64,000 nucleotides of DNA from Eledone cirrhosa (lineage: Eukaryota), in assembly GCA_964016885.1 (NCBI GenBank), contig OZ024744.1, forward strand, positions 5,642,001-5,706,000, written 5' to 3'. The position numbers and the translations under genes are program-made. The notes under the pieces were generated by a model. It did no database searches. It was given only the letters and a program-made list of their open reading frames with translations, and was not told the DNA's origin. The number at the start of each line of letters is the position of its first letter. The stretch's first letter is position 1. Of the stretch, positions 1,545-56,405 are shown in pieces.

Positions 1545-1555
1545 CTCTATATATA

Positions 1556-2686
1556 TAGGTACCAATCAGTACGAAACATAGCTCTGTCAGCTTCATCTCT
1601 TCTGTTTGCTAAAAAATGTAAAGTAAGTGAGACTGTCACTACTCTCAAACAATAGCATAACGTAAAGGAAATGCTTTTAATTAAGCATACGGTGTATTGC
1701 AAAATACACTATATATACATTCACATATATATAGCTATTTCAGAGCGCCAATTCTAATTTTCAATTTCTACTTGACCGGCAACCGCACTGTATAATCAGT
1801 TCCTGATTATTACTAGAAATTCTATAAGAATCAAACATTCATAATTTTCAGCAAACAGGTGGAGTACTTGGTTTTGATAAGTACCAATCAGTACGAAACA
1901 TAGCCCTGTCAGCTTTATCTCCCCTGTTTCCTGAAAATTTAAAGTAAGTGAGACTGTCACTACTCTAAAACAGTAGCATAAGGTAAATGAAATGCTGCTA
2001 ATTAAGCATACAGTGTATTGAAAAATACACTATATATACATTCACATATATATAGCTATTTCAGAGCGCCAATTCTAATTTTAAATTTCTGCTTGACCGG
2101 CAACCGCTCTGTATAATCAGTTCCCGATTATTACTAGAAATTCTATAAGAAGAAAAATTTTAGGTTCTTCAGCAAACAGGTGGAGTACTTGGCTTTGATA
2201 AGTACCAATCAGTACGAAACATAGCCCTGTCAGCTTTATCTCCCCTGTTTGCTGAAAATTTAAAGTAAGTGAGAGTGACACTACTTTAAAACAATAGCAT
2301 AAGGTCTTCGAAATGCTTTTAATTAAGCATACAGTGTATTGCAAAATACACTATATATACATTCATATATATATATCGCTATTTCAGAGCACCAATTCTA
2401 ATTTACAATTTCTACTTGACCGGCAACCGCTCTGTATAGTATATTCAGATCTTGATTATTACTAGAAATTCTATAAGAATAAAAAAATTCATGATTTTCA
2501 GCAAACAGGTGGAGTACTTGGCTTTGATAAGTACCAATCAGTACGAAACATAGCTCTGTCAGCTTTATCTCCCCTGTTTGCTGAAAATTTAAAGTGAGAC
2601 TGTCACTACTCTAAAACAATAGTAGAAGGTCTTCGAAATGCTTTTAATTAAGCATACAGTGTATTGCAAAATATACTATATATACA

Positions 2687-2771
<85 letters not shown>

Positions 2772-4685
2772 CTATTTCAGAACGCCAATTCTAATTTTCA
2801 ATTTCTGCTTGACCAGCAAACGCTCAGTATAATCAGATCCTGATTATTACTAAAAATTCTATAAGAATCAAACATTCATGATTTTCAGCAAACAGGTGGA
2901 GTACTTGGCTTTGATAAGTACCAATCAGTACGAAACATAGCTCTGTCAGCTTTATCTCCTCTGTTTGCGAAAATTTATTGTAAGTGAGACTGACACTACT
3001 CTAAAACAATAGCATAAGGTCTTCGAAATGCTTTTAATTAAGCATACAGTTATTTGCAAAATACACTATATATACATTCATATATATATCGCTATTTAAG
3101 AGCGCCAATTCTAATTTTCAATTTCTGCTTGACCGGCAACCGCTCTGTATAATCAGTTCCTGATAATTACTAGAAATTCTATAAGAATCAAACATTCATG
3201 GTTTTCAGCAAACAGGTGGAGTACTTGGCTTTGATAAGTACCCATCAGTACGAAACATAGCTTTGTCAGCTTTATCTCCCCTGTTTGCTGAAAATTTAAA
3301 GTAAGTGAGACAGTCACTACTCTAAAGCAATAGCATAAGGTTTTCGAAATGCTTTTAATTAAGCATACAGTGTATTGCAAAATACACTATATATACATTC
3401 ATATATATATCGCTATTTCAGAGCGCCAATTCTAATTTTCAATTTCTGCTTGACCGGCAACAGCTCTGTATAATCAGATCCTGATTATTACTAGAAATTC
3501 TATAAGAATAAAGAATTCATGATTTTCAGCAAACAGGTGGAGTACATGGCTTTGATAGGTACCAATCAGTACGAAACATAGCTCTGTCAGCTTTATCTCT
3601 TCTGTTTGCTAAAAAATGTAAAGTAAGTGAGACTGTCACTACTCTCAAACAATAGCATAACGTAAAGGAAATGCTTTTAATTAAGCATACGGTGTATTGC
3701 AAAATACACTATATATACATTCACATATATATAGCTATTTCAGAGCGCCAATTCTAATTTTCAATTTCTGCTTGACCGGCAACCGCACTGTATAATCAGT
3801 TCCTGATTATTACTAGAAATTCTATAAGAATCAAACATTCATAATTTTCAGCAAACAGGTGGAGTACTTGGTTTTGATAAGTACCAATCAGTACGAAACA
3901 TAGCCCTGTCAGCTTTATCTCCCCTGTTTCCTGAAAATTTAAAGTAAGTGAGACTGTCACTACTCTAAAACTATAGCATAAGGTAAATGAAATGCTGCTA
4001 ATTAAGCATACAGTGTATTGCAAAATACACTATATATACATTCACATATATATAGCTATTTCAGAGCGCCAATTCTAATTTTAAATTTCTGCTTGACCTG
4101 CAACCGCTCTGTATAATCAGTTCCCGATTATTACTAGAAATTCTATAAGAATAAAAATTTTAGGTTTTCAGCAAACAGATGGAGTACTTGGCTTTGATAA
4201 GTACCAATCAGTACGAAACATAGCCCTGTCAGCTTTATCTCCCCTGTTTGCTGAAAATTTAAAGTAAGTGAGAGTGACACTACTTTAAAACAATAGCATA
4301 AGGTCTTCGAAATGCTTTTAATTAAGCATACAGTGTATTGCAAAATACACTATATATACATTCATATATATATATCGCTATTTCAGAGCACCAATTCTAA
4401 TTTACAATTTCTACTTGACCGGCAACCGCTCTGTATAGTATATTCAGATCCTGATTATTACTACAAATTCTATAAGAATAAAAAAATTCATGATTTTCAG
4501 CAAACAGGTGGCGTACTTGGCTTTGATAATTACCAATCAGTACGAAACATAGCTCTGTCAGCTTTATCTCCCCTGTTTGCTGAAAATTTAAAGTGAGACT
4601 GTCACTACTCTAAAACAATAGTAGAAGGTCTTCGAAATGCTTCTAATTAAGCATACAGTGTATTGCAAAATATACTATATATACA

Positions 4686-4780
<95 letters not shown>

Positions 4781-6697
4781 CTATTTCAGAACGCCAATTC
4801 TAATTTTCAATTTCTGCTTGACCAGCAAACGCTCTGTATAATCAGATCCTGATTATTACTAAGAATTCTATAAGAATCAAACATTCATGATTTTCAGCAA
4901 ACAGGTGGAGTACTTGGCTTTGATAAGTACCAATCAGTACGAAACATAGCTCTGTCAGCTTTATCTCCAATGTTTGCTGAAAATTTATTGTAAGTGAGAC
5001 TGACACTCTCTAAAACAATAGCATAAGGTCTTCGAAATGCTTTTAAATGAGCATACAGTTATTTGCAAAATACACTATATATACATTCATATATATATCG
5101 CTATTTAAGAGCGCCAATTCTAATTTTCAATTTCTGCTTGACCGGCAACCGCTCTGTATAATCAGTTCCTGATAATTACTAGAAATTCTATAAGAATCAA
5201 ACATTCATGGTTTTCAGCAAACAGGTGGAGTACTTGGCTTTGATAAGTACCCATCAGTACGAGACATAGCTCTGTCAGCTTTATCTCCCCTGTTTGCTGA
5301 AAATTTAAAGTAAGTGAGACAGTCACTACTCTAAAGCAATAGCATAAGGTTTTCGAAATGCTTTTAATTAAGCATACAGTGTATTGCAAAATACACTATA
5401 TATACATTCATATATATATCGCTATTTCAGAGCGCCAATTCTAATTTTCAATTTCTGCTTGACCGGCAACAGCTCTGTATAATCAGATCCTGATTATTAC
5501 TAGAAATTCTATAAGAATAAAAAATTCATGATTTTCAGCAAACAGGTGGAGTACTTGGCTTTGATAGGTACCAATCAGTACGAAACATAGCTCTGTCAGC
5601 TTTATCACTTCTGTTTGCTAAAAAATGTAAAGTAAGTGAGACTGTCACTACTCTCAATCAATAGCATAACGTAAAGGAAATGCTTTTAATTAAGCATACG
5701 GTGTATTGCAAAATACACTATATATACATTCACATATATATAGCTATTTCAGAGCGCCAATTCTAATTTTTACAATTTCTGCTTGACCGGCAACCGCACT
5801 GTATAATCAGTTCCTGATTATTACTAGAAATTCTATGAGAATCAAACATTCATAATTTTCAGCAAACAGGTGGAGTACTTGGTTTTGATAAGTACCAATC
5901 AGTACGAAACATAGCCCTGTCAGCTTTATCTCCCCTGTTTCCTGAAAATTTAAAGTAAGTGAGACTGTCACTACTCTAAAACAATAGCATAAGGTAAATG
6001 AAATGCTGCTAATTAAGCATACAGTGTATTGCAAAATACACTATATATACATTCACATATATATAGCTATTTCAGAGCGCCAATTCTAATTTTAAATTTC
6101 TGCTTGACCGGCAACCGCTCTGTATAATCAGTTCCCGATTATTACTAGAAATTCTATAAGAATAAAAATTTTAGGTTTTTCAGCAAACAGATGGAGTACT
6201 TGGCTTTGATAAGTACCAATCAGTACGAAACATAGCCCTGTCAGCTTTATCTCCCCTGTTTGCTGAAAATTTAAAGTAAGTGAGAGTGACACTACTTTAA
6301 AACAATAGCATAAGGTCTTCGAAATGCTTTTAATTAAGCATACAGTGTATTGCAAAATACACTATATATACATTCATATATATATATCGCTATTTCAGAG
6401 CACCAATTCTAATTTACAATTTCTACTTGACCGGCAACCGCTCTGTATAGTATATTCATATCCTGATTATTACTAGAAATTCTATAAGAATAAAAAAATT
6501 CATGATTTTCAGCAAACAGGTGGAGTACTTGGCTTTGATAAGTACCAATCAGTACGAAACATAGCTCTGTCAGCTTTATCTCCCCTGTTTGCTGAAAATT
6601 TAAAGTGAGACTGTCACTACTCTAAAACAATAGTAGAAGGTCTTCGAAATGCTTTTAATTAAGCATACAGTGTATTGCAAAATATACTATATATACA

Positions 6698-6788
<91 letters not shown>

Positions 6789-9700
6789 CTATTTCAGAAC
6801 GCCAATTCTAATTTTCAATTTCTGCTTGACCAGCAAACGCTCTCTATAATCAGATCCTGATTATTACTAAAAATTCTATAAGAATCAAACATTCATGATT
6901 TTCAGCAAACAGGTGGAGTACTTGGCTTTGATAAGTACCAATCAGTACGAAACATAGCTCTGTCAGCTTTATCTCCTCTGTTTGCTGAAAATTTATTGTA
7001 AGTGAGACTGACACTACTCTAAAACAATAGCATAAGGTCTTCGAAATGCTTTTAATTAAGCATACAGTTATTTGCAAAATACACTATATATACATTCATA
7101 TATATATCGCTATTTAAGAGCGCCAATTCTAATTTTCAATTTCTGCTTGACCGGCAACCGCTCTGTATAATCAGTTCCTGATAATTACTAGAAATTCTAT
7201 AAGAATCAAACATTCATGGTTTTCAGCAAACAGGTGGAGTACTTGGCTTTGATAAGTACCCATCAGTACGAAACATAGCTCTGTCAGCTTTATCTCCCCT
7301 GTTTGCTGAAAATTTAAAGTAAGTGAGACAGTCACTACTCTAAAGCAATAGCATAAGGTTTTCGAAATGCTTTTAATTAAGCATACAGTGTATTGCAAAA
7401 TACACTATATATACATTCATATATATATCGTTATTTCAGGGCGCCAATTCTAATTTTCAATTTCTGATTGACCGGCAACAGCTCTGTATAATCAGATCCT
7501 GATTATTACTAGAAATTCTATAAGAATAAAAAATTCATGATTTTCAGCAAACAGGTGGAGTACTTGGCTTTGATAGGTACCAATCAGCACGAAACATAGC
7601 TCTGTCAGCTTTATCTCTCCTGTTTGCGGAAAATGTAAAGTAAGTGAGAATGTCACTACTCTCAAACAATAGCATAACGTAAAGGAAATGCTTTTAATTA
7701 AGCATACGGTGTATTGCAAAATACACTATATATACATTCACATATATATAGCTATTTCAGAGCGCCAATTCTAATTTTCAATTTCTGCTTGACCGGCAAC
7801 CGCACTGTATAATCAGTACCTGATTATTACTAGAAATTCTATAAGAATCAAACATTCATAATTTTCAGCAAACAGGTGGAGTACTTGGTTTTGATAAGTA
7901 CCAATCAGTACCAAACATTGCCCTGTCAGCTTTATCTCCCCTGTTTCCTGAAAATTTAAAGTAAGTGAGACTGTCACTACTCTAAAACAATAGCATAAGG
8001 TAAATGAAATGCTGCTAATTAAGCATACAGTGTATTGCAAAATACACTATATATACATTCACATATATATAGCTATTTCAGAGCGCCAATTCTAATTTTA
8101 AATTTCTGCTTGACCGGCAACCGCTCTGTATAATCAGTTCCCGATTATTACTAGAAATTCTATAAGAATAAAAATTTTAGGTTTTTCAGCAAACAGATGG
8201 AGTACTTGGCTTTGATAAGTACCAATCAGTACGAAACATAGCCCTGTCAGCTTTATCTCCCCTGTTTGCTGAAAATTTAAAGTAAGTGAGAGTGACACTA
8301 CTTTAAAACAATAGCATAAGGTCTTCGAAATGATTTTAATTAAGCATACAGTGTATTGCAAAATACACTATATATACATTCATATATATATATCGCTATT
8401 TCAGAGCACCAATTCTAATTTACAATTTCTACTTGACCGGCAACCGCTCTGTATAGTATATTCAGATCCTGATTATTACTAGAAATTCAATAAGAATAAA
8501 AAAAATCATGATTTTCAGCAAACAGGTGGAGTACCTGGCTTTGATAAGTACCAATCAGTACGAAACATAGCCCTGTCAGCTTTATCTCTCCTGTTTGCTG
8601 AAAATGTAATGTAAGTGAGACTGTCACTACTCTAAAAGAATAGCATAAGGTCATCGAAATGCTTTTAATTAAGCATACAGTGTATTGCAAAATACACTAT
8701 ATATACATTCATATATATATCGCTATCTCATAGCGCCAATTCTAATTTTCTATTTCTGCTTGACCGGCAACCGCTCTGTATAGTATAATCAGATCCTGAT
8801 TATTACTAGAAATTCTATAAGAATAAAAAAATTCATGATTTTCAGCAAACAGGTGGAGTACTTGGCTTTGATAAGTACCAATCAGTACGAGACATAGCTC
8901 TGTCAGCTTTATATCCCCTGTTTGCTGAAAATTTAAAGTAAGTGAGACTGACACTACACTAAACAATAGCATAAGGTCTTCGAAATGCTTTTAATTTAGC
9001 ATACAGTGTATTGCAAAGTACACTATATATATATACATATATATATATAGCTATTTCAGAGCGCCAATTCTAATTTTCAATTTCAGCTTGACCGGCAACC
9101 GCTCTGTATAATCAGATCCTGATTATTACTAGAAATTCTATAAGAATCAAACATTCATGATTTTTAGCAAACAGGTGGAGTATTTGTTTTTGATAAGTAC
9201 CAATCAGTACGAAACATAGCTCTGTCAGCTTTGTCTCCCCTGTTTGCTGAAAATTTAAAGTAAGTGAGACTGTTACTACTCTAAAACAATAGCATAAGGT
9301 CATCGAAATGCTTTTAATTAAGCATACAGTGTATTGCAAAATACACTATATATATACATTCATATATATATATAGTTATTTCAGATCGCCAATTCTAATT
9401 TTTAATATCTGCTTGACCGGCAACCGCTCTGTATAATCAGATCCTGATTATTACTAGAAATTCTATAAGAATCAAACATTCATGATTTTCAGCAAGTAGG
9501 TGGAGTATTTGGCTTTGATAAGTACCAATCAGTACGAAACATAGCTCTGTCAGATTTATCTCCCCTGTTTGCTGAAAATATAAAGTAAGTGAGACTGTCA
9601 CTACTCTAAAAGAATAGCATAAGGTCATCGAAATGCTTTTAATTAAGCATACAGTGTATTGCAAAATACACTATATATACATTCATATATATATCGCTAT

Positions 9701-12700
9701 TTCATAGCGTCAATTCTAATTTTCTATTTCTGCTTGACCGGCAACCGCTCTGTATAGTATAATCAGATCCTGATTATTACTAGAAATTCTATAAGAATAA
9801 AAAAATTCATGATTTTCAGCAAACAGGTGGAGTACTTGGCTTTGATAAGTACCAATCAGTACGAAACATAACTCTGTCAGCTTTATCTCCACTGTTTGCT
9901 GAAAATTTATTGTAAGTGAGACTGACACTCTCTAAAACAATAGCATAAGGTCTTCGAAATGCTTTTAATTAAGCATACAGTTATTTGCAAAATACACTAT
10001 ATATACATTCATATATATATCGCTATTTCAGAGCGCCAATTCTAATTTTCAATTTCTGCTTGACCGGCAACCGCACTGTATAATCAGTTCCTGATTATTA
10101 CTAGAAATTCTATGAGAATCAAACATTCATAATTTTCAGCAAACAGGTGGAGTACTTGGTTTTGATAAGTACCAATCAGTACGAAACATAGTTCTGTCAG
10201 CTTTATCTCCCCTGTTTGCCGAAAATTTAAAGTAAGTGAGACAGTCACTACTCTAAAGCAATAGCATAAGGTTTTCGAAATGCTTTTAATTAAGCATACA
10301 GTGTATTGCAAAATACACTATATATACATTCATATATATATCGCTATTTCAGAGCGCCAATTCTAATTTTCAATTTCTGCTTGACCGGCAACAGCTCTGT
10401 ATAATCAGATCCTGATTATTACTAGAAATTCTATAAGAATAAAAAATTCATGATTTTCAGCAAACAGGTGGAGTACTTGGCTTTGATAGGTACCAATCAG
10501 TACGAAACATAGCTCTGTCAGCTTTATCTCTTCTGTTTGCTAAAAAATTGTAAAGTAAGTGAGACTGTCACTACTCTCAAACAATAGCATAACGTAAAGG
10601 AAATGCTTTTAATTAAGCATACGGTGTATTGCAAAATACACTATATATACATTCACATATATATAGCTATTTCAGAACGCCAATTCTAATTTTCAATTTC
10701 TGCTTGACCAGCAAACGCTCTGTATAATCAGATCCTGATTATTACTAAACATTCTATAAGAATCAAACATTCATGGTTTTCGGCAAACAGGTGGAGTACT
10801 TGGCTTTGATAAGTACCCATCAGTACGAAACATAGCTCTGTCAGCTTTATCTCCCCTGTTTGCTGAAAATTTAAAGTAAGTGACACAGTCACTACTCTAA
10901 AGCAATAGCATAAGGTTTTCGAAATGCTTTTAATTAAGCATACAGTGTATTGCAAAATACACTATATATACATTCATATATATATCGCTATTTCAGAGCG
11001 CCAACTCTAATTTTCAATTTCTGCTTGACCGGCAACAGCTCTGTATAATCAGATCCTGATTATTACTAGAAATTCTATAAGAATAAAAAATTCATGATTT
11101 TCAGCAAACAGGTGGAGTACTTGGTTTTGATAAGTACCAATCAGTACGAAACATTGCCCTGTCAGCTTTATCTCCCCTGTTTCCTGAAAATTTAAAGTAA
11201 GTGAGACTGTCACTACTCTCAAACAATAGCATAACGTAAAGGAAATGCTTTTAATTAAGCATACGGTGTATTGCAAAATACACTATATATACATTCACAT
11301 ATATATAGCAATTTCAGAGCGCCAATTCTAATTTTCAATTTCTGCTTGACCGGCAACCGCACTGTATAATCAGTTCCTGATTATTACTAGAAATTCTATA
11401 AGAATCAAACATTCATAATTTTCAGCAAACAGGTGGAGTACTTGGTTTTGATAAGTACCAATCAGTACGAAACATTGCCCTGTCAGCTTTATCTCCCCTG
11501 TTTCCTGAAAATTTAAAGTAAGTGAGACTGTCACTACTCTAAAACAATAGCATAAGGTAAATGAAATGCTGCTAATTAAGCATACAGCGTATTGCAAAAT
11601 ACACTATATATACATTCACATATATATAGCTATTTCAGAGCGCCAATTCTAATTTTAAATTACTGCTTGACCGGCAACCGCTCTGTATAATCAGTTCCCG
11701 ATTATTACTAGACATTCTATAAGAATAAAAATTTTAGGTTTTTCAGCAAACAGATGGAGTACTTGGCTTTGATAATTACCAATCAGCACGAAACATAGCC
11801 CTGTCAGCTTTATCTCCCCTGTTTGCTGAAAATTTAAAGTAAGTGAGAGTGACACTACTTTAAAACACTAGCATAAGGTCTTCGAAATGCTTTTAATTAA
11901 GCATACAGTGTATTGCAAAATACACTATATATACATTCATATATATATATCGCTATTTCAGAGCACCAATTCTAATTTACAATTTCTACTTGACCGGCAA
12001 CCGCTCTGTATAGTATATTCAGATCCTGATTATTACTAGAAATTCAATAAGAATAAAAAAAATCATGATTTTCAGCAAACAGGTGGAGTACCTGGCTTTG
12101 ATAAGTACCAATCAGTACGAAACATAGCCCTGTCAGCTTTATCTCCCCTGTTTGCTGAAAATGTAATGTAAGTGAGACTGACACTACTCTAAAACAATAG
12201 CATAAGGTCTTCGAAATGCTTTTAATTAAGCATACAGTGTATTGCAAAATACACTATATATACATTCATATATATATCGCTATTTCAGAGCGCCAATTCT
12301 AATTTTCAATATCTGCTTGACCGGCAACCGCTCTGTATAATCAGATCCTGATTATTATTAGAAATTCTATAAGAATCAAACATTCATGATGTTCAGCAAG
12401 CAGGTGGAGTATTTGGCTTTGAAAAGTACCCATCAGTACGAAACATAGCTCTGTCAGATTTATCTCCCCTGTTTGCTGAAAATATAAAGTAAGTGAGACT
12501 GTCACTACTCTAAAAGAATAGCATAAGGTCATCGAAATGCTTTTAATTAAGCATACAGTGTATTGCAAAATACACTATATATACATTCATATATATATCG
12601 CTATTTCATAGCGCCAATTCTAATTTTCTATTTCTGCTTGACCGGCAACCGCTCTGTATAGTATAATCAGATCCTGATTATTACTAGAAATTCTATAAGA

Positions 12701-13882
12701 ATAAAAAAATTCATGATTTTCAGCAAACAGGTGGAGTACTTGGCTTTGATAAGTACCAATCAGTACGAAACATAGCTCTGTCAGCTTTATATCCCCTGTT
12801 TGCTGAAAATTTAAAGTAAGTGAGACTGACACTACACTAAACAATAGCATAAGGTCTTCGAAATGCTTTTAATTAAGCATACAGTGTATTGCAAAGTACA
12901 CTATATATATATTCATATATATATATAGCTATTTCAGAGCGCCAATTCTAATTTTCAATTTCAGCTTGACCGGCAACCGCTCTGTATAATCAGATCCTGA
13001 TTATTACTAGAAATTTTATAAGAATCAAGCATTCATGATTTTTAGCAAACAGGTGGAGTACCTGGCTTTGATAAGTACCAATCAGTACGAAACATAGCTG
13101 TGTCAGATTTGTCTCCCCTGTTTGCTGAAAATTTAAAGTAAGTGAGACTGTTACTACTCTAAAATAATAGCATAAGGTCATCGAAATGCTTTTAATTAAG
13201 CATACAGTGTATTGCAAAATACACTATATATATACATTCATATATATATATAGTTATTTCAGATCGCCAATTCTAATTTTCAATATCTGCTTGACTAGCA
13301 ACCGCTCTGTATAATCAGATCCTGATTATTACTAGAAATTCTATAAGAATCAAACATTCATGATTTTCAGCAAGTAGGTGGAGTATTTGGCTTTGATAAG
13401 TACCCATCAGTACGAAACATAGCTCTGTCAGATTTATCTCCCCTGTTTGCTGAAAATATAAAGTAAGTGAGACTGTCACTACTCTAAAAGAATAGCATAA
13501 GGTCATCGAAATGCTTTTAATTAAGCATACAGTGTATTGCAAAATACACTATATATACATTCATATATATATCGCTATTTCATAGCGCCAATTCTAATTT
13601 TCTATTTCTGCTTGACCGGCAACCGCTCTGTATAGTATAATCAGATCCTGATTATTACTAGAAATTCTATAAGAATAAAAAAATTCATGATTTTCAGCAA
13701 ACAGGTGTAGTACTTGGCTTTGATAAGTACCAATGAGTACGAAACATAGCTCTGTCAGCTTTATCTCCCCTGTTTGCTGAAAATTTAAAGTGAGACTGTC
13801 ACTACTCTAAAACAATAGTACAATGTCTTCGAAATACTTTTAATTAAGCATACAGTGTATTGCAAAATATACTATATATACA

Positions 13883-13945
<63 letters not shown>

Positions 13946-14579
13946 CTATTTAATAGCGCCAATTCTAATTTTCTATTTCTGCTCGACCGGCAACCGCTCT
14001 GTATAGTATAATCAGATCCTGATTATTACTAAAAATTCTATAAGAATCAAGCATTCATGATTTTCAGCAAGCAGGTGGAGTATTTGGCTTTGATAAGTAC
14101 CCATCAGTACGAAACATAGCTCTGTCAGATTTATCTCCCCTGTTTGCTGAAAATATAAAGTAAGTGAGACTGTCACTACTCTAAAAGAATAGCATAAGTT
14201 CATCGAAATGCTTTTAATTAAGCATACAGTGTATTGCAAAATACACTATATATACATTCATATATATATCACTATTTCATAGCGCCAATTCTAATTTTCT
14301 ATTTCTGCTTGACCGGCAACCGCTCTGTATAGTATAATCAGATCCTGATTATTACTAGAAATTCTATAAGAATAAAAAAATTCATGATTTTCAGCAAACA
14401 GGTGGAGTACTTGGCTTTGATAAGTACCAATCAGTACGAAACATAGCTCTGTCAGCTTTATCTACCCTGTTTGCTGAAAATTTAAAGTGAGACTGTCACT
14501 ACTCTAAAACAATAGTACAAGGTCTTCGAAATGCTTTTAATTAAGCATACAGTGTATTGCAAAATATACTATATATACA

Positions 14580-14632
<53 letters not shown>

Positions 14633-15568
14633 CTATTTCAGAGCGCCAATTCTAATTTTCAATTTCCGCTTGACCAGCAAACGCTCTGTATAATCAGATC
14701 CTGATTATTACTAAAAATTCTATAAGAATCAAACATTCATGATTTTCAGCAAACAGGTGGAGTACTTAGCTTTGATAAGTACCAATCAGTACGAAACATA
14801 ACTCTGTCAGCTTTATCTCCCCTGTTTGCTGAAAATGTAAAGTAAGTGAGACTGACACTACTTTAAAACAATAGCATAAGGTCTTCGAAATGCTTTTAAT
14901 TAAGCATACAGTGTATTGCAAAATACACTATATATACATTTATATATATATCGCTATTCCAGAGCGCCAATTCTAATTTTCAAATTCTGCTTGACCGGCA
15001 ACCGCTCTGTATAATCAGATCCTGATTATTACTAGAAATTCTACAAGAATCAAACATTCATGATGTTTAGCAAACAGGTGGAGTATTTGGCTTTCATAAG
15101 TACCAATCAGTACGAAACATAACCCTGTCAGCTTTATCTCCCCTGTTTCCTGAAAATTTAAAGTAAGTGAGACTGTCACTACTCTAAAACAATAGCATAA
15201 AGGTCATCGAAATGCTTTTAATTAAGCATACAGTGTATTGCAAAATACACTATATATACATTCATATATATATCGCTATTTCAGAGCACCATTTCTAATT
15301 TTCAATTTCTGTTTGACCGGGAACCGCTCTGTATAATCAGATCCTGATTATTACTAGAAATTCTATAAGAATCAAAATTTAAAGTTTTTCAGCAAACAGG
15401 TGGAATACTTGGCTTTGATAAGTACCAATCAGTACGAAACATAGCTCTGTCAGCTTTATCTCCCCTGTTTGCTGAAAATGTAAAGTAAGTGAGACTGACA
15501 CTGCTCTAAAACAATAGCATAAGGTCTTCGAAATGCTTTTAATTAAGCATACAGTGTATTGCCAAATA

Positions 15569-15575
<7 letters not shown>
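1556..15575 (+). repeat. Tandem array of 43 monomers of about 321 bp carrying type I hammerhead ribozymes (retrozyme-like satellite)
   Basis: GTACGAAACATAG or a close variant recurs 43 times at about 321-329 bp spacing, longer where the internal (AT)n is expanded. Consensus HHR is GGCT-TTGATAA-GTAC-CAATCA-GTAC-GAAA-CATAGCTCTG-TC-AGCT. The first unit is truncated inside the core. Confidence 0.93.
2495..2587 (+). ncRNA. Representative type I hammerhead ribozyme of the array (monomer 4)
   Basis: Distal stem I TTTTCAGCAAACAGG/CCTGTTTGCTGAAAA (15 bp), then GGAG/CTCC, an internal loop and GGCT/AGCT. Core TTGATAA (2524-2530), stem II GTAC/GTAC, GAAA (2545-2548), stem III ACA/TGT. Predicted cut GUC|A after 2560. 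Confidence 0.88.
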
Positions 15576-15642
<67 letters not shown>

Positions 15643-15673
15643 AGTGTAATTTACTACACAAAACGAAGGTTAT

Positions 15674-17075
<1,402 letters not shown>

Positions 17076-20819: not shown

Positions 20820-20914
20820 AGACATGTAAGCTATCGCCGTATTTTGACTAAAGAAATTGTTTAGCCTGATAGTGGGGTTAAGAACCCTCGGAGAAATGGA
20901 AAAAGATGAGTATT

Positions 20915-20985
20915 AACGTGCATGGGAGTCGAACCCAGATCTTTGGTTATCCGGACCACTGTGCTACCATTTACACCAACACATC
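20915..20985 (-). mobile_element. tRNA-derived SINE head or tRNA pseudogene
   Basis: Minus strand has A-box TGGTGTAAATGG, B-box GGTTCGACTCC and an imperfect cloverleaf with many wobbles and mismatches. Confidence 0.6.
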
Positions 20986-27273: not shown

Positions 27274-30200
27274 CTACAGGCGCATGATCAGAGTAGACCC
27301 ACTCACACGGGCCATTCTCGCCACATTCACCCACATTTCAGCAAATGTACTAAGGGGCAACACTTCTCTGTCCACCGTCACCTTCCTTTCAGGTGAAATT
27401 TGAAAAGGTTGAGAGATTGGCCGAAGAGAAAAGTGTCTGTCTTCAGTCCTTTCAATCTCGTCCACCATACAACCTCTTTCGCTACTGCCACCAGACAGAG
27501 GAAAATTGCCTGCCCTTCCTGGCCAAAAGAAGGCGGCGGGTCGATCTTCACTATGGACTCGGCCGATAGCCGGATCCGTTCTACACGCGACAACAGCTAT
27601 TCAACATAACTCCATAAGTCAGTAATGCACGGACACTGGACGATGCGTGCAGAACAGTTTCGTCGCTCTGCGCGCATCTCGGGCAGGTCCGTCTGACAGT
27701 ACTTCCGTGCCTGTAGAGTTTATCCCGAACCGGCAGTGCCCTCCCGTAGCACTGCCAAGCGAGGGATTTTTGGAAATTATCCATCGTCTCAGGCTCGAAA
27801 GTCCTCCAGTACAGACTGGTTAGTTCGACTTCGTGGACTCCCAGAGCCTCTCCGAGTGCCTCGTCGCACTTGCCCACCACTAATCCTCTATAGAACTCGA
27901 GAGTGGAAGTTCCACTGACCGCATTGCCCGCCTGGTAGAGAGCAGTGAGTGCCTGGCAACATTCTAGATGCCGGTCACCCAGTCTTGGTCTCTTCTTGAC
28001 CCAGGACTGCAACTCAGTCAAAGAAACGAGCTACGGAAGGCCCGTCTGACAAACGGCGACAACACCTGTTCACCGTTTAGGTAGAATATCTGGAGATGTC
28101 GCAGCCTCAGCGCATGCCCGCGCATCATTAGCCACGGCATGCCCAGCCCTCCACGTAGAGGGTGCTGGCAGCAGATGGACCGCCTCACCAGCGGAACCTG
28201 ACCCTCCACAAGAATTTGAAGCGAAGCCGCTCCAAGATGGTGAGGCGCGAATGGGGGCACCTCCGCCCGACCTTTCAGTGATAGCTTCATCCCAGCCCAT
28301 TTCTGGATGAGACTGACTACCCTGCCCGCCACCTCGTCCCAATTCTTATCCACCTGGAGGTCTGGCCCAAACCAAACCCCTAGCAACTTTACCGGTCCGT
28401 CCGTTCAGCGCCTAACGACGCTGTTGGACGGCATGGACTTGCCTCCCCAGGGGCCGAGTTGCAAGCCCACTGACTTTTCTGGGTTAAGTTTTGCTCCCGT
28501 CAACCTTTCATATTCCTCCAATAAGTTGCCGACCACCTCGATTTCTGAGGTGTCCGACACCATCACGATATGTCGTCCGCATGAGCCGACACAGCCTTTC
28601 CGCGTCCCGGTTCGAGCGGGAAGCCCTGCAACAGCTCCAGCTTCCGCAGTAAAGGCTCGAGAGTCAATACGTACAGAGGGGAGGGGAGAGGGCACCCTTG
28701 ATGGACCGATCGGGAGACCTGAAACGGTTCCGAGAGGTGGCCATTAATTTTGACCATCGAGCAGGTGCTGCTGTGCATTGCAGCGAACCAGCTTCTGAAG
28801 ACGGGGCCGAAGCCAGCCGCCTTGAGGACAGCCTCCAGATACCGATGGTCGACCCTATCGTATGCTTTCGATTGATCTAAATTTATCAGAGCCCCACCGA
28901 AGCCAGGTTTACACCCTACCCTATCTATGATGTATCGCATCAGGTGGAGATTGTCGTGTATGGACCTGGTTGGGATTGTGCAAGTTTGCGCCTCCCCAAC
29001 CAAATCCCCGACGACAAGCGCCAACTTCTTCGCTAACACACTGGCCACAATTTTAAAATCTGTGTTGAGCAGAGTTATGGGCCTGAAATTGTCTAATGTG
29101 TCCCTCTTGTTCTCGTCTTTCCTTATCAGCGTCACTACGCCCCAGCTCACAGAACTGGGAATACTCCCGTTTTGCTACCAGTTGCAGTAGAGGGCTTCGA
29201 GGCGATTAGAGAACAAGTCTGGCATATTTACGTAAAGCTCGTAGGGCAGACCATCCGAACCGGGTGACTTGCGCCTCATGCAGCCTACAAGTAATTGGCC
29301 TTTCGCAGTGCCCGGCATCAGCCGTCGAGAGTTGCGACTAGCCATCGAGGTAGCGACTGAAGTCCGCCACCATCTCTGACCCGCCTTTTCCCCCGAACAA
29401 CCGAGCAAAATGTTGGCGAAAGGCCTCACACATCCTCTTGGAATCACTCAGCTCGTGCCCGTCTCGGTACGTCAAAGACCGAATCGTGGTTTAATTACCA
29501 CGCTGCGCCTCTGCCACGAGGGCCCATTGAACAGCTTTGGTTCCCTCGTTTCTCAGAGCACGCGCCTTAGCTCTGACAATGCAACCTTCGTGTTTCGCAT
29601 TGAAGAAATGGTCTAATGCCATTCTCGCCGCTAGTACGTCAGTTGCAATGCCACTACCAATAGCCTCGTCTAACTTATCTACCGGCTCCCCCTCCTTTCT
29701 ATTTTTCTCTAACGCTACTTCTTTGCTAAACTCTATCGACATTACTTTAATCTCTCTTTTGAGAGTCCCCCACCATCTATTGTTGACGACTCTCCCTGTC
29801 AGCTTTTTCTTAACTAAATTGTTGACCTGGTCCCTGTAAGCCTTACGTGCCGTAAATTACATGTTTAGCTTCCAGTAACCAGGTCCTAACCTACGCGTCT
29901 TATCTAGGTCGACCATACAGATCTGAATAGGCGACCGTTTCAAAACGTGGACAGCTTACACTATTTCTGTCTATTTTCCTAATGAATATCCTGTCTATAT
30001 ACGATCTAGATGACCCTATGCGGTTAGCCCAGGTCCACACTGGCGCATTAGGGAAATCTAGTCGGTACCTGTCAGACAGTTGAACTGGCAGATCAGGTTC
30101 TTGAGGCTTTTGCACCCCCCGCTCCTATCGGATACTCCCACACAGTCCCAGCGTGCGTCTAAGATGCCGTTCCAGTCCCCCGCTAACAGTAAAGGGCGAG

Positions 30201-30597
30201 ACGGACCCAGAAGGGCTTCCAGGCGTCTAAAGAAGTCCGGCCGTCCTTCCCCAGTAGGAGCATAGACGGCCACCAGTCTAAAGGCACCACCTTCATTATT
30301 GTTCACGTCCAGGACCACCAACTTCCCGTCCGGGTCCCGGAAGATCGACCTTACATCGAGATCCAGGCCTTTCCTAAACAGCACTGCCACCCCGCCTCCC
30401 ATTCCCGGCCGGCTAACAGATGCAAAGATCTGATAGTCGTCGAAAATGGGGGCTAGTGCGCGCGTGTCGGAAATCCTGGTCTCGCTGACTGCAATTACAT
30501 CCATTTCTATAGACCCGAGGTCGTTGTGCAGGTGACCCTGCTTCCAGGACGATCCCAGGCCTCGAACATTTAAACATCCTACTCTTAATACGGCCAT
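27274..30597 (-). pseudogene. LINE ORF2 (AP endonuclease + reverse transcriptase), disrupted
   Basis: ORF track pieces 30058-30597, 29900-30115, 28563-29150, 28018-28386 and 27581-28021 are collinear parts of one ORF2. Confidence 0.88.
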
Positions 30598-30628
30598 GTT
30601 GGCAGGTTAAACAGAGAGAGAGGTTAGT

Positions 30629-32591
30629 TTACTTACCTCCCGGGCTCTTGTGAAGGTCGGGTTGTTCGACCTCCATAGTTAGTGGGGTTTCTTTTGGGAA
30701 CCCCTTTAAAAGTCTTGAAGTTGGTTTTACGTTCGGGGTTCCCACGTCTCGAGGAAAGCTGTCTCGTATTTCTTTGAATATGTCGACCGACATTCGCACC
30801 AGAACCAAATCTTCCGGCACGCGAAATGTGCTCGATTTAAAAATTTCCCCCTCTTTTTGTATATTTTCACTTCGTGCTACGAGGACCATCAGTTCCTTGT
30901 TGGCCCTCCTGACGATCACGAAGTTTTGTATGTTTTGTTGGTGTGATTTTATTTGTTTGCGTGGCTGTGGTGGTGATGGTTTTGGTGGTGTTGTTTCGGT
31001 TGTATCTGTGTTTGTTGTGAGTGCGGTGTCTGTGGTTTCAGATGTTTGTGTGTATATTTGTTCTTGCGTCTGTTTCATTGTTTGCGTTTGGGGGATTCTG
31101 GTGATAGTGATGGTGGTGTCGATGTTGGTGTTATTGGAGAGATGTTTGCGTGGGTGGTGTCTGCGTTTTTTATTGTCGGTGCTTTTGTGCTTTGTTGAGT
31201 TTTTTTTTCTTTTTGTGTTTCCTTTTTTGTATTTTGGGGGATTTGGGATTTCCCTCATCTTCACTACTGGTAGATGAGGGGTCTGTGTCTGTAAGTGTGT
31301 CTGTATGTATGTTTATGGTTTTATTGGTGTGTGTATTTTTGGGGGGAGGGGGAATTTGACAGCTTTCCTCGTTTCCCCCCTGGATAGTCAATGTTGGTGG
31401 TGGTCTTTCTATTGGTGTTGTTGTTGGTGGTTTTACGGTGCTGGTGTTGGTTGTGGTCCTCGCCCCGGCGTCGGCAGCAGTGGAGCCTTTCGACCCCTTG
31501 CTTCTTTCAGCAGTTGAGGGCAGAAGGCTCGCAAATGGATTTTTTCCCCACAAACAAAACACTGCGGCCTTTTGCGCCCGGTCATAATGTGAATGACAGT
31601 CCCATTCTGAAGGCGGATGTTGTCTGGGATTGTCCTCACATTCTCGGGCCTGATCTGGAGAAGGATCTCCAGGTCAACCCCGGACCAGTCCTCTCTGGCC
31701 ATTCTGGTCACTTCTATAGGGACTGTATCCGTCCCCTCCACAATCACACATCCCAGAAGCCACCACATGTCAAGTCCTGGTGGGATTCTGGGAATGTGGA
31801 GACGGGCCGTTCTTTTTCACATGTGGGAGGGGTACATTATGAGCTTGCTGGTTTTGCAAGGATTCATAGCGTGTTTCATAGCGAGGGCTTCTGACTTGAA
31901 CAACACCGAAATGGTGCCGTACTGCCTCCTCCTCTCTATGTACTGGGTGTCTTCTCTGATGCGCCTCAGCGCGACTTCGACATCTTGTGGGATTAAAGCT
32001 GCCCTTTTGGTTTGTGCTGAGATGCATCTATAATGCACCGTTCTGTGCTCCACTGCCTCAATAGCTTCTACCGGGACAGTTAAGTTGGCCCAGGTTTACT
32101 CTTGCTTGATGAGCTTCCATGCCTGGGCCAACTTTTCATCTTTGGTTGAGAGGTCCATGTTGAAGCATGGCCTCTTTTTTGCTGCTGCCGCAGCGAAAGT
32201 GTTCTTCTTGTTGTCGTTGGGGTCGTTGTTCTTGTTGGTGTTGTTGTTAGCACTGTCGCTGTTATCATTGTTGTCTTTGTTGCCACCGTTGTTCTCGGTG
32301 CAGTTGGTATTGTTGCTGGTGGTGTTGTCGCTATTTGTTTTCATGTTAGTGGTGTTGATATTGTTGTTGTATTTGTTTGTTTTTTTTGTTATCTGTATTT
32401 TCGTTGTCGCTGTTAAGGTCATTTTTTTCAAAATTAGAGTTCTTATTGGTATCATTGGTGTCTTTGTTTACCTTGTTTGTGGTGGTGTTTTTGTTATCAA
32501 TGTGTGTTAATTTCGCTGTAGCGCTCCTCTCAACTTCTACGTCGTTGTCGCACGACAGCCGACATATCGCTGGGGGGCGTGGCTCAGCCAT
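30629..32591 (-). pseudogene. LINE ORF1 (gag-like, CCHC knuckle, Asn/Thr-rich), frameshifted
   Basis: Pieces 32346-32591, 32096-32455, 31817-32053, 31433-31768, 31170-31562 and 30629-31264 lie directly upstream of the ORF2 start. Confidence 0.75.
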
Positions 32592-32855
32592 GTTTTATTT
32601 TCTTCGTAAATTTTTTAACATGTAAAAAAAAAAGTTCAAATATTTGGGCCAAAAGGCCCAAATATTATACTTTCCCCTTCACGGGGCAAAGTCTAAGGGC
32701 TTATATCCTTTACACAAGAAATAGTTAACAATAAATAATTTAAACAGGCAAATAAAGCGACTTACTGTGAGGGAGCAAAATACGTCCGCTTAGACCAATA
32801 ATAATAATAAATAAATAAATTATTGTATCTGAAGCTCTCTTCCACCGTGGAAATA

Positions 32856-35015
32856 TTAAGGAAGGATGTCTGTATATTACATATAAGAAATATTAAGGAA
32901 GGATGTCTGTATATTACATATAAGAAATATAAGGAAGGATGTCTGTATATTACATATAAGTAATATAAGGAAGGATGTCTGTATATTACATATAAGACAT
33001 ATAAGGAAGGATGTCTGTATATTACATATAAGTAATATAAGGAAGGATGTCTGTATATTACATATAAGTAATATAAGGAAGGATGTCTGTATATTACATA
33101 TAAGTAATATAAGGAAGGATGTCTGTATATTACATATAAGAAATATAAGGAAGGATGTCTGTATATTACATATAAGTAATATAAGGAAGGATGTCTGTAT
33201 ATTACATATAAGTAATATAAGGAAGGATGTCTGTATATTACATATAAGAAATATAAGGAAGGATGTCTGTATAGTACATATAAGTAATATAAGGAAGGAT
33301 GTCTGTATATTACATATAAGTAATATAAGGAAGGATGTCTGTATATTACATATAAGAAATATAAGGAAGGATGTCTGTATATTACATATAAGAAATATAA
33401 GGAAGGATGTCTGTATAGTACATATAAGTAATATAAGGAAGGATGTCTGTATATTACATATAAGAAATATAAGGAAGGATGTCTGTATATTACATATAAG
33501 AAATATAAGGAAGGATGTCTGTATAGTACATATAAGTAATATAAGGAAGGATGTCTGTATATTACATATAAGAAATATAAGGAAGGATGTCTGTATATTA
33601 CATATAAGAAATATAAGGAAGGATGTCTGTATATTACATATAAGAAATATAAGGAAGGATGTCTGTATATTACATATAAGTAATATAAGGAAGGATGTCT
33701 GTATATTACATATAAGAAATATAAGGAAGGATGTCTGTATATTACATATAAGAAATATAAGGAAGGATGTCTGTATATTACATATAAGAAATATAAGGAA
33801 GGATGTCTGTATATTACATATAAGAAATATAAGGAAGGATGTCTGTATATTACATATAAGAAATATAAGGAAGGATGTCTGTATATTACATATAAGAAAT
33901 ATAAGGAAGGATGTCTGTATATTACATATAAGTAATATAAGGAAGGATGTCTGTATATTACATATAAGAAATATAAGGAAGGATGTCTGTATATTACATA
34001 TAAGAAATATAAGGAAGGATGTCTGTATATTACATATAAGAAATATAAGGAAGGATGTCTGTATAGTACATATAAGAAATATAAGGAAGGATGTCTGTAT
34101 ATTACATATAAGAAATATAAGGAAGGATGTCTGTATAGTACATATAAGTAATATAAGGAAGGATGTCTGTATATTACATATAAGTAATATAAGGAAGGAT
34201 GTCTGTATATTACATATAAGAAATATAAGGAAGGATGTCTGTATAGTACATATAAGTAATATAAGGAAGGATGTCTGTATATTACATATAAGAAATATAA
34301 GGAAGGATGTCTGTATAGTACATATAAGTAATATAAGGAAGGATGTCTGTATAGTACATATAAGTAATATAAGGAAGGATGTCTGTATATTACATATAAG
34401 TAATATAAGGAAGGATGTCTGTATATTACATATAAGTAATATAAGGAAGGATGTCTGTATAGTACATATAAGTAATATAAGGAAGGATGTCTGTATATTA
34501 CATATAAGAAATATAAGGAAGGATGTCTGTATATTACATATAAGTAATATAAGGAAGGATGTCTGTATAGTACATATAAGTAATATAAGGAAGGATGTCT
34601 GTATAGTACATATAAGTAATATAAGGAAGGATGTCTGTATATTACATATAAGTAATATAAGGAAGGATGTCTGTATATTACATATAAGTAATATAAGGAA
34701 GGATGTCTGTATAGTACATATAAGTAATATAAGGAAGGATGTCTGTATATTACATATAAGTAATATAAGGAAGGATGTCTGTATAGTACATATAAGTAAT
34801 ATAAGGAAGGATGTCTGTATATTACATATAAGTAATATAAGGAAGGATGTCTGTATATTACATATAAGTAATATAAGGAAGGATGTCTGTATATTACATA
34901 TAAGTAATATAAGGAAGGATGTCTGTATAGTACATATAAGTAATATAAGGAAGGATGTCTGTATATTACATATAAGTAATATAAGGAAGGATGTCTGTAT
35001 ATTACATATAAGTAA
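32856..35015. repeat. 36-bp minisatellite, about 60 copies
   Basis: Unit ATAAGGAAGGATGTCTGTATATTACATATAAGTAAT with two main polymorphic sites and no spacers. Confidence 0.95.
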
Positions 35016-35099
35016 CACAACACAAACAGACTGAACAGACAAATAACAAACACAATACATTGTATTGGCTACAACCGCAACAGCTCCCTCACTACAGAA

Positions 35100-38000: not shown

Positions 38001-38856
38001 ACCACCACTACCACTAACCTAACTCTACCACCACCACCACTACCACTACCCTGTCTCTACCACCACTACCACTACCACCGCCCTATCTCCACCACCACTA
38101 CCACTACCCTATCTCCACTACCACCACCCTATCTCCACCACCACTACCACTACCCTATCTCCACCACCACTACCACTAACCTAACTCTACCACCACCACC
38201 ACTACCACTACCCTGTCTCTACCACCACTACCACTACCACCGCCCTATCTCCACCACCACTACCACTACCCTATCTCTACCACCACTACCACTACCACTA
38301 CCCTATCTCCACCACCACTACCACTAACCTAACTCTACCACCACCACCACTACCACTACCCTATCTCCACTACCACCACCCTATCTCCACCACCACTACC
38401 ACTACCCTGTCTCTACCACCACCACCACTACCACTACCCTATCTCCACCACCACTACCACTAACCTAACTCTACCACCACCACCACTACCACTACCCTAT
38501 CTCCACTACCACCACCCTATCTCCACCACCACTACCACTACCCTGTCTCTACCACCACCACCACTACCACTACCCTATCTCCACCACCACTACCACTAAC
38601 CTAACTCTACCACCACCACCACTACCACTACACTATCTCCACCACCACTACCACTACCCTATCACCACCACCACTAGCACCACCATCATTCCCCCACCGC
38701 CACCACTACTCCACCACCACCACCACCACTACTACTCCACCACTACCACCACCACTATTCCCCCACCGCCACCACTACTCCACCACCACCACTACCACTA
38801 CTCCACCACCACCGCCACGACTACTGCACCAACACTACCACCACCACCACCACCAC
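35100..38856. repeat. C-rich (CCA/CTA)-based satellite with mainly 20- and 26-bp units
   Basis: Units CCCTATCTCCACTACCACTA and CCCTATCTCCACCACCACTACCACTA, with CCCTAA variants; extreme C/G strand skew. Confidence 0.92.
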
Positions 38857-39925: not shown

Positions 39926-39930
<5 letters not shown>

Positions 39931-40262
39931 ATTAGGATTGGTGCTCTGAAATAGCGATGTATACATGAATATATGTATAGATATTTGGCAATATACTTTA
40001 TGCTTAATTACAAACACTTTGAAGACCTTGCGCTATTATTTTAAATTAGTGACTATGTCGCTTACTTCTTTTTTCAACAAACAAAGGGAGATAAGCTGAC
40101 AGATCTGTTTCACACTGTTGGTGTTCATCAGAGCTTAGCACTCGCCGATGTTTGTTGAAAATTATAGATGCTGGATTCTTCTAGAATTCCAGTAATAATC
40201 AGGAACTGATTATACAGAGCGCTTGCCGGTCCAGTTCAGAGCACCAATCCTAATTTTCAATT
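39926..40262 (-). mobile_element. Solo diverged monomer of the HHR satellite (dispersed retrozyme-like insertion)
   Basis: Reverse complement is collinear with the 321-bp monomer; abuts (AT)n; 25-bp inverted terminal duplication at 39926-39950 / 40235-40259. Confidence 0.88.
40071..40161 (-). ncRNA. Canonical type I hammerhead ribozyme in the solo monomer
   Basis: Minus strand TTTTCAACAAACA...AAGCT-CTGATGA-ACAC-CAACA-GTGT-GAAA-CAGATCTG-TC-AGCTT...TGTTTGTTGAAAA; predicted cut between 40098 and 40097. Confidence 0.9.
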
Positions 40263-40264
40263 TT

Positions 40265-41322
40265 TGGAGTCAGGCACCACTGTGGGGTTTGGAGGCCGCA
40301 CGAAAACAGGCAAGGCGGTGCTGGTCGAGCTGGTGCGTGAGCCTGTCTGAGGCCAGATTGCACTCGATGGCATCCCAAGTGGTTTGAGAGGACTTGACGT
40401 CAACAGGGGGAGAAGGATGAGGGACGTTTACTGGGCTAAGTCCCAGCCGGTCCCATATATCACAGGCGGCCTCACGTTCTCTGAACACAGAGGGTTCTAT
40501 TGTGTTTAGAAGAACCCTGCTGACAAGGTTGCGGCACGAGATTACCGACGAAAGATACGCCGGCAAAGCCAGTGAGATCGGGGGCGGGAGGCCAAGGCCA
40601 CCATACCTGACAGGTAAAGTAGCCTGTTGGCATCCAATGTCCTCAAACTTGAAGTTGCATATCTCCTCGGCTGCTGCTCGGATACAAGTATCGAGGTCAA
40701 CGAGGAGAGATGTCTGAGTGTAGCATGGAGCGCTGCGGAGTGTATAGAGGAGCTTCGGCATGACGAAGCAGTTTCTCAACAGAAAGAGGGCTGGGTGGCC
40801 TTCGATCAAGCCCAGTCGGCTCGTGAGAGTTTGGAGTTATTGAAGCCTGGACCTGATGGTGGAGCAGATGGCTGGCGGGTGGATCGGTGACCCGAGGATG
40901 AGAACATCCTATTTAGGGGTCACCTGTACCTGGTGGAGAATGGACCGCACGTCCGAGACGGAGGCTGCAAAGCTCTCAGCATGGTGGCTGACATTCACCA
41001 CCTCCGACTTGGCCGAGTTGACCTGGAGGCCGATGCCCGCCAGGGCAGGAACCAGCGATTGTAGGTCATCAACGTAGCATCATCCAGATACCAAACATTG
41101 AGAGCGGCAGTGATACTCCGAACGATGTAGTCTATACCAAGGGCAAACAAGAGGGGTCCCAAAGGGTCGCCCTGTTGAACCCCAGTGGCCAAAGGTATGA
41201 CCGTATCAGCAGCAAGGAGCATGATCGGGCCTCCATACAACAGGTAGGCCAGCGGGTAGGCAGAGGGGGCTCGGCTGAGCAGGCATCGAGCAGATGGTCC
41301 CGGCGTAAGCAGTTGAATACAG
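40265..41322 (-). pseudogene. CRE-clade non-LTR retrotransposon RT fragment
   Basis: GVQQGDPLGPLLFAL, WYLDD, ALFLLRNCF.MPKLLYTLRSAP and QATLPVRYGGLGL. Confidence 0.8.
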
Positions 41323-42584: not shown

Positions 42585-43127
42585 TTGTTATACTTTGGGA
42601 GGGTCATGTTGCCAATAAGAAACACACGCACCTTTCACTTCAATTTATTATATATTTATAAATTTATAAATTTACACATTTACAAACTTATAAATTTCTG
42701 GTTGGTTGGTTGGTTCCACAACCAGATAGTTGTTTATATATAGTCATAGTCCTTTCGTCACACACTATGTGACCTCTTCAGTGACTGGGGATTCCTTTCT
42801 TTGTTTCTGTGCCTTTCCTTTCTTCTATCCTACGCCATTTTGTTTCTGTGTGTGTGTTGTGTGCTCAGTTTGCGCATGCGCCACATCCGGGTGTCTGTGT
42901 GTGTTTGTGTTCATTTATCTATTTGTTTATTTATTTATTTATTCATTGTTGGTTGGTTGTTTGTTCTATGTGTGTGTGTGTTTTCATTTTGTCCTGTGTG
43001 TGTTTTCATTTTGTCCTTAATTGTAAGTTGTTTGTTCTATTGGCAACATGACCCTCCCAAAGTATAACAATATCGGTTTCAACACACGATTTCAGATAAA
43101 GAATCTTGCTAAACAAATTCAGAAACG

Positions 43128-53366: not shown

Positions 53367-55010
<1,644 letters not shown>

Positions 55011-55480: not shown

Positions 55481-56405
<925 letters not shown>

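Follow-up and report, generated by a model that had tools for sequence, protein, structure and literature searches.

The DNA analyzed here, referred to as the window, is a 64-kb stretch of Eledone cirrhosa DNA on contig C28 of a 3.0-Gb genome. Near its start lies a tandem array of a 321-bp repeat carrying a hammerhead ribozyme (Table 1), which we assign to a retrozyme family designated A, and the ends of the dispersed copies of this family point to Penelope-like elements (PLEs) as the machinery by which it spreads. Hammerhead anchors were found 43 times between positions 1567 and 15430, on the + strand only, and Tandem Repeats Finder (TRF) reported a period of 321 across 1555-15598. The preliminary description of this DNA had counted 43 units, in agreement with the anchors, but the first anchor starts inside stem II and the array thus holds 42 complete hammerheads and one truncated one. 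Similarly, the monomer length of 321-329 nt given there applies to 37 of the 42 cleavage-to-cleavage monomers (320-329 bp), while the other five are longer (355-397 bp) because an internal (TA)n has expanded. The monomers have a GC content of 34%. The longest open reading frame (ORF) starting with ATG in a trimer of the unit is 28 amino acids long, so the reverse transcriptase (RT) plus GIY-YIG ORF of an autonomous PLE is absent from it, and no ORF of 120 amino acids was found in the array. An ambisense, viroid-like nature was rejected, as no - strand copy of the hammerhead anchor is present anywhere in the window.

The monomers fall into 17 classes, the order of which is abcdefabcdefabcdefabc followed by a reshuffled part. 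Like-placed monomers of the higher-order block are 97-100% identical, compared to a mean of 92.9% over all pairs, and monomer identity peaks at lags of 6 and 12 (0.951 and 0.952 versus approximately 0.926). The six-unit class order and the two peaks therefore indicate that the array grew by duplication at the DNA level.

Table 1. Coordinates of the array, its ribozyme and the related insertions in the window.
Feature	Position	Strand	Remarks
Tandem array, retrozyme family A	1556..15575	+	42 monomers and partial ends
Array 5' end		+	Truncated inside stem II; (TA)n flanks both sides of the array
Array 3' end		+	'No-tail' (short) terminus of the family; (TA)n beyond
Higher-order repeat block	1589..8577	+	3.5 copies of a six-monomer (~2 kb) unit
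Representative type I hammerhead, extended stem I	2495..2587	+	Motif reading and fold
Core UUGAUAA (U3-A8)	2524-2530	+	Unit at 2495-2587
Stem II GUAC/GUAC	2531-2534/2541-2544	+	Unit at 2495-2587
GAAA	2545-2548	+	Unit at 2495-2587
Stem III, 3-bp, near-palindromic	2548-2559	+	Unit at 2495-2587
Predicted cut GUC/AGCU	2560/2561	+	Unit at 2495-2587
Conserved multi-hairpin domain, +60 to +200	7345..7485	+	Shown in unit 18; holds both fixed 3' termini
Insertion 3' termini in unit 18	~+135 (7420), ~+169 (7454)	+	34-nt tail between
(TA)33 target microsatellite	15572..15638	.	Common to the array and the neighboring PLE end
Neptune-type PLE 3' end, two-arm inverted insertion	15639..16940	.	86-95% identical to the 3' untranslated region (UTR) of L209
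Minimal U3-A8 hammerhead in PLE end	~15780-15830	-	
Minimal U3-A8 hammerhead in PLE end	~16790-16835	+	
Family B single insertion	39926..40266	-	81% identical; canonical C3-G8 core; tail terminus then (TA)n
Inverted 5' piece of the family B insertion	40235-40266		32 bp

The array had been described as carrying a complete type I hammerhead, and the core, stem II, stem III, the GUC triplet and the 15-bp helix were all located in the representative unit, in which stem I is extended by this distal helix plus a 4-bp helix. The fold of 2495-2587 has an energy of -36.4 kcal/mol (z -6.2), and 0 of 200 shuffled sequences were equally stable. The active hammerhead fold lies approximately 2 kcal/mol above the minimum-energy fold, so the minimum is not quite the active fold. 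The core is intact in 34 of the 42 hammerheads, and in 26 of them the core and all of stems I-III are. As 27 of the 42 monomers are flanked by two core-intact ribozymes, the release of monomers or circles from the array would be possible. The Rfam check suggested earlier gave no hammerhead at gathering score in the 64 kb and no Hammerhead_1 match, the best match being HH9 with 18.2 bits against a cut-off of 52 (E-value 0.2). Exact matches of the 32-mer core across the genome, on the other hand, number 213, with 0 for the control.

Further evidence comes from an alignment of 11 real copies of family A and its sister families B and C, in which both sides had changed in 9 of the 25 named pairs, including the 3-8 pair (U-A in 8 and C-G in 3 rows) and three stem II pairs. 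Covariation as high was found in 0 of 500 shuffles, a count to which no probability is attached as the copies represent three lineages and not 11 independent events. The claim that U3-A8 keeps the 3-8 pair is upheld by its swap with C3-G8 between the sister families and by published natural covariation (PMC4209133; here and below, sources are cited for the parts of their text available to us). U3-A8 has also been published for PLE hammerheads (PMC4209133), and a scan of 30 GIY-YIG loci showed it in 12. Judged by its structure and covariation, the family A motif is a genuine type I hammerhead for which self-cleavage is predicted. Its topology and the head-to-tail units rule out a plant long terminal repeat (LTR) retrozyme, which has type III hammerheads in its LTRs. 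A second hammerhead-like string at ~+214-240 of the unit was discarded, since its 3-8 positions are unpaired and its PLE matches have E-values of 0.3-3.7.

A 29-mer spanning the cut site has 907 exact matches in the genome, so that family A has at least 907 copies, spread over many contigs. In line with the preliminary description, family A shares with the metazoan non-LTR retrozymes of Cervera and de la Pena (2020; PMC7229834) a tandem non-coding unit of 150-450 bp with GC below 50%, one canonical type I hammerhead in each of the consecutive units, PLEs in the same genome and a range of arrays from dimers to tens of units. Also shared are a circular monomer fold that is self-paired (z -7.5) and the lack of LTRs, of any primer-binding site (PBS) and of any polypurine tract (PPT), none of which was met with in family A, where no separate search was aimed at PBS and PPT. 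The known units measure 220-245 bp in coral, 350-390 bp in mussel and 330-350 bp in the axolotl/newt satellite 2 retrozymes; coral arrays have up to 62 units, circles have been detected by Northern blot, and PLEs have been proposed as partners (PMC7229834). Unlike them, family A is a new sequence family known here from its DNA alone, and it has, as does family D, a U3-A8 core. We have little doubt that family A is a non-LTR retrozyme, i.e., a new family of a known class. A literature search covering titles, the starts of abstracts and few subscription journals returned no description of the family.

The sister families B, C, and D have units of 315-317 bp, and the four families are mutually 54-89% identical, with the hammerhead kept in all of them. 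Family D (L265, L262-L285) is a 316-bp retrozyme with a U3-A8 core, a long perfectly palindromic stem III and otherwise different stems, and it has 318 first-look candidates in the genome. A bacterial promoter scan was uninformative, with 9 matches versus 15.9 expected.

To read the insertion ends, 160 loci were tiled with the unit; overlapping duplicates, two long arrays, and arms of less than 89% identity were excluded from the family A statistics. Among the 196 family A arms, 71 have their 3' ends at +163-178 (mode +169), 87 at +119-151 and 38 elsewhere, while the 5' ends are spread over the whole unit, as in 5' truncation. Two inverted arms are present in 68 insertions: 41 combine a tail with a no-tail arm, 2 have two no-tail arms, 0 have two tail arms, and 25 include an unclassified arm. 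One end of each kind is thus found in 41 of the 43 classifiable insertions (P = 1e-10). In family B, which is without the internal TA run, the short end is fixed at ~+135; with the long end at +169, the extra tail therefore amounts to 34 nt. Families B and D terminate at the same two sites as A. Exact junctions of the tail with (AT)n number 1,026 genome-wide, with 0 for the control. The family A ends are truncations and (TA)n junctions, and target-site duplications, which in retrozymes exceed 4 bp when present, are unreadable here because the targets are (TA)n. No account of tails together with inverted arms in retrozyme insertions was returned by the literature search, again with few subscription journals covered.

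The (TA)n that is expanding in units 4, 10, 16, 38, and 40 (e.g., 2671-2769) coincides with the short insertion terminus. Family A thus carries its own target site, and self-insertion into the internal (TA)n could add to array growth. Contigs X1-X3 of one sample, the kind of which is unrecorded, were compared with 14800-16120; as the array and the PLE flank are covered alike, they look genomic and cannot show RNA ends. In run X1, an (AT)n loose end was seen at window position 15299, which is the +169 position of unit 42. The stretch from +60 to +200, in which both termini lie, is the best-kept region between family D and families A-C and is a putative reverse-transcription start region. Alignment folding found double changes in 8 of 32 pairs on the + strand and in 12 of 38 on the - strand; since the - strand folds as well, this domain may act on either strand and as RNA or as DNA.

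PLE insertions are 5'-truncated, often have an inverted 5' copy, carry a 30-40-bp tail at one end and are biased towards microsatellites (PMC8557442), the tail corresponding to the sequence that separates two internal sites of RT initiation (PMC11167929). Family A resembles the Neptune and Nematis PLEs (PMC8557442) and the anole Poseidon element PAc (PMC11167929) in each of these respects, having 5' truncation, an inverted 5' arm, a tail of that size at one end only, two putative internal RT starts in a stem-loop downstream of the hammerhead, and AT-rich or microsatellite targets. It differs from them in having no ORF, in a canonical instead of a minimal hammerhead, and in that the whole element is one 321-bp repeat. 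That family A is mobilized by PLEs is in our view highly probable. The preliminary description, while correct about the retrozyme class, had missed this insertion signature, which is the more informative feature.

An in-window control is provided by the neighboring Neptune-type PLE end, which adjoins the array across the (TA)33 and has the same anatomy as the retrozyme insertions, with a ~35-nt extension on its - arm and none on its + arm. The ORF of its relative L209 ends in a Pfam GIY-YIG domain preceded by a CxxC motif, as given for Neptune and Nematis PLEs (PMC8557442). Minimal U3-A8 hammerheads in which stem III is a 4-nt palindrome occur in several Neptune-type PLE families (3' UTRs of L051-L078 and L192-L209); where the ends of these 3' UTRs were read, they finish at (TA)n.

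It is extremely unlikely that family A is instead an ordinary satellite, or a repeat similar to a short interspersed nuclear element (SINE) and mobilized by a long interspersed nuclear element (LINE) with twin-priming inversions, the hammerhead being incidental. LINE fragments with Pfam RVT_1 and AP-endonuclease matches are indeed present in the window at 28.5-30.6 kb, and the higher-order repeat reflects satellite-type growth. However, no poly(A) signal or Pol III B box was found in families A-D, and T4 runs at +86, +169, and +256 of the unit argue against Pol III read-through. Moreover, the starts of both arms lie at two fixed internal positions separated by 34 nt, a pattern not expected from twin priming, and the ribozyme covaries, so that this explanation was already disfavored.

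The template used by the PLE machinery may be judged from how the copies pass the cut site. Approximately 98% of the counted copies read through it (907 versus 17). The 17 starts at the cut site with both upstream bases unmatched exceed the 2 at the control site +41 (P = 1e-5), although the control 27-mer is commoner than the cut-site one in the sampled loci (132 versus 88), and the excess persists for starts without the palindromic seven (10 versus 2, P = 0.003). A linear cut monomer primed at +169 would yield at most 169 bases, while 42 of 65 loci, which were chosen by an exact core match, have an arm of more than one unit. Rare non-CpG variants are 8 times more often common to units within an insertion (43 of 23,584 sites) than between loci (354 of 1,603,569 sites), and the subfamily marker 312G agrees in 24 of the 29 tandem pairs within insertions, where 15% is expected. 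Two older family A arrays, L151 (G000:C2:230635300-230643499+; at least 22 units, minimum distance 6.1%) and L152 (G000:C1:93461800-93466400; at least 14 units, minimum distance 8.8%), are star-like and without higher-order repeats, and each of them looks as if copied from one template. A variant present in just one of 217 dispersed copies recurs in 21 of the 22 L151 units, and this array has an inverted 5' arm as well. The read-through, the variants common to an insertion and the star-like shape of the arrays fit rolling-circle reverse transcription of a ligated monomer without proving it.

The pathway that we consider, with moderate confidence, to be the probable one is that of a non-autonomous, non-coding, non-LTR retrozyme parasitizing a PLE by way of circles. 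A tandem copy would be transcribed, and its hammerheads, as their structure, their covariation and a weak genomic footprint suggest, would cut at GUC/AGCU to give the 321-nt monomer. As in published retrozymes, a host ligase such as RtcB might close the monomer into a circle. The RT/GIY-YIG protein of a PLE, most likely of Neptune or Nematis type, would then nick (TA)n and begin cDNA synthesis at an internal position of the RNA, ~+135 for one target strand and ~+169 for the other, which would leave the two inverted arms, one with the 34-nt tail, that are seen in the insertions. By passing the ligated cut site, the cDNA would run round the presumed circle, which would account for the observed arm lengths, mostly 0.6-2 units, with a few arms reaching 7-22 units. 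At the array locus, such an insertion was later enlarged by the duplication of six-unit blocks recorded there, and it is now decaying.

More specifically, the insertions may document in the genome how a Neptune-type PLE reverse-transcribed a ribozyme-made RNA circle by target-primed, rolling-circle synthesis. We put this forward tentatively because of the two internal start sites mapped within the conserved multi-hairpin domain, the seamless read-through of the ligation site, the rarity of run-off at the cut end, and the single-template arrays of 14-22 units. Several observations weigh against the circle-based pathway. Seven of the 17 cut-site starts complete a palindrome, two of them being one junction, and could be microhomology joints; stem I could stall the RT at the cut site, and one control site only was used. 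In the 196-arm sample, which consists of loci picked for the upstream core, the excess of 5' ends at the cut site is absent (4 versus 3.7 expected). The loci were picked as best or exact matches and thus lean towards young and long copies. A closely similar pattern is expected if uncleaved multimers came from a homogeneous young source or if units were rapidly amplified in place. Insertion by the purified anole PLE proceeds without cleavage by the hammerhead, and none of the RNA reads ended at its cut site (PMC11167929), and among nine genomic retrozyme dimers from Xenopus examined by Li, Clavereau and Pollet, one was cleaved in vitro and the other eight were not (bioRxiv 10.64898/2026.07.22.740005). 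Finally, BLAST and nhmmer searches of 75 PLE loci with families A-C found no autonomous PLE sharing the monomer sequence; these loci represent a small part of two first-look candidate sets (10,597 and 24,961). No pseudo-LTR (pLTR) homologue of the unit was found among these loci either, and the sole matches were in L052, where an insertion of family C is nested, and, weakly, in L056. The latter was rejected as a PLE partner, as it proved to be the fourth retrozyme family, D.

The dispensability of cleavage in the anole system and the high proportion of read-through also suit a different template, namely linear RNA multimers that stay uncleaved and stem from young, short tandem copies of the same family, inserted by the same PLE machinery. 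The hammerhead would then be kept for another step, such as 5'/3' processing or freeing the RNA from read-through transcripts, and any circles would be by-products. Autonomous PLEs and the ribozyme-free non-autonomous Chlamys elements are likewise known to make partial or multicopy tandems (PMC8557442). Nevertheless, a canonical covarying ribozyme with a long stabilizing stem I, kept in four families, should cut such multimers, and the long star-like arrays require long homogeneous sources, yet long arrays are few. We therefore regard a linear template as rather unlikely.

The circle-based reading agrees with the preprint of Li et al. (bioRxiv 10.64898/2026.07.22.740005) in the class of partner, as retrozymes are considered there to be non-autonomous PLE derivatives. 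The evidence in that preprint consists of co-occurrence and pLTR homology, mainly in Xenopus, and local tandem growth from one pLTR is favored. Here, in contrast, the argument rests on the anatomy of the insertions, and the dispersed copies with several units look as if inserted as such. A review notes that no conserved motif of animal retrozymes points to a partner (PMC7761336); unlike in that account, insertion ends with a PLE tail, inversion and a (TA)n target have been mapped in family A.

As the longest array seen, with most of its cores intact, the 43-unit array itself might be thought to be the active master of the family or a domesticated producer of circRNA that selection maintains. 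Distinct variants number 4 in the 12 core sites and 6 in the 20 stem sites, fewer per site than the 116 in the other 206, but these numbers are too small for a claim of selection. However, none of the 128 dispersed copies compared lies nearer to any array unit than to the family majority sequence, from which the array units differ by 4.2% and the dispersed copies by 3.1%. Marker 211A is present in 28 of the 42 array units but in 2 of 175 dispersed copies, and the core-damaging A9G change has been duplicated into 4 units. In addition, stem III of the array is of a weakened type, whereas in raw-data contigs the perfect palindrome predominates, with 83% of the depth at 15442 in X1. Such a role is thus very unlikely. 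A view of the locus as special or as the source finds no support; it is one long copy of a dispersed mobile family with private and ribozyme-damaging mutations. Exact dimer matches are located in the array in 27 of 99 cases and outside it, mostly singly, in 72; the length of L151 used in this comparison is a lower bound. With arrays of up to 180-300 units reported in the preprint of Li et al., 43 units are not exceptional, and the array is ordinary for its class. We conclude that it is a sink, a product rather than a master copy, and slowly decaying.

Other repeats were found in the window. In the (TA)n-rich flank, short elements at 620-773, 790-875, and 1307-1550 comprise two inverted pairs, the arms of which are 94% and 96% identical, as well as an end of 85 bp, and homologues of 500-780 and 790-875 were present in 26 and 45 of 270 sampled loci, respectively; the elements at 620-1550 are probably 3' ends of further PLE-type families. 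Minimal hammerhead-like motifs at ~55933-55990 (+) and 42740-42795 (-), with a CUGAAGA core, one unpaired base and then a 6-bp stem II, belong to another repeat family seen in 17 of 270 sampled loci. A very abundant family (24,961 first-look candidates) is represented by broken RT and GIY-YIG-like frames at 47431-48984 (+) and 53752-54501 (-); the two frames tested gave no Pfam match, and we presume from their motifs that they are PLE-like. A broken LINE at ~27600-32500 (-) includes the Pfam matches RVT_1 (28563-29174) and AP-endonuclease (30058-30606), and a tRNA-like Rfam match of 35 bits at 20914-20985 (-) is possibly a SINE head or a pseudogene. A 36-bp minisatellite (32852-35015; 60 copies, 97% match) adjoins a 3.7-kb C/A-rich repeat of 20/26/46 bp with extreme GC skew (35099-38812).

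In the literature available to us, the movement of retrozymes and the role of circles as transposition intermediates have so far been proposed rather than shown. If rolling-circle insertion by a Neptune-type PLE is true, the +60 to +200 domain would act as the recognition signal that animal retrozymes are said to lack, and it would constitute a portable element for the PLE-mediated insertion of circular RNA into (TA)n. Family A offers predictions at the base level, i.e., starts at ~+135 and ~+169, a (TA)n target and a Neptune-type partner, and the mapped start sites make this open mechanistic question testable with the existing in vitro PLE assay.

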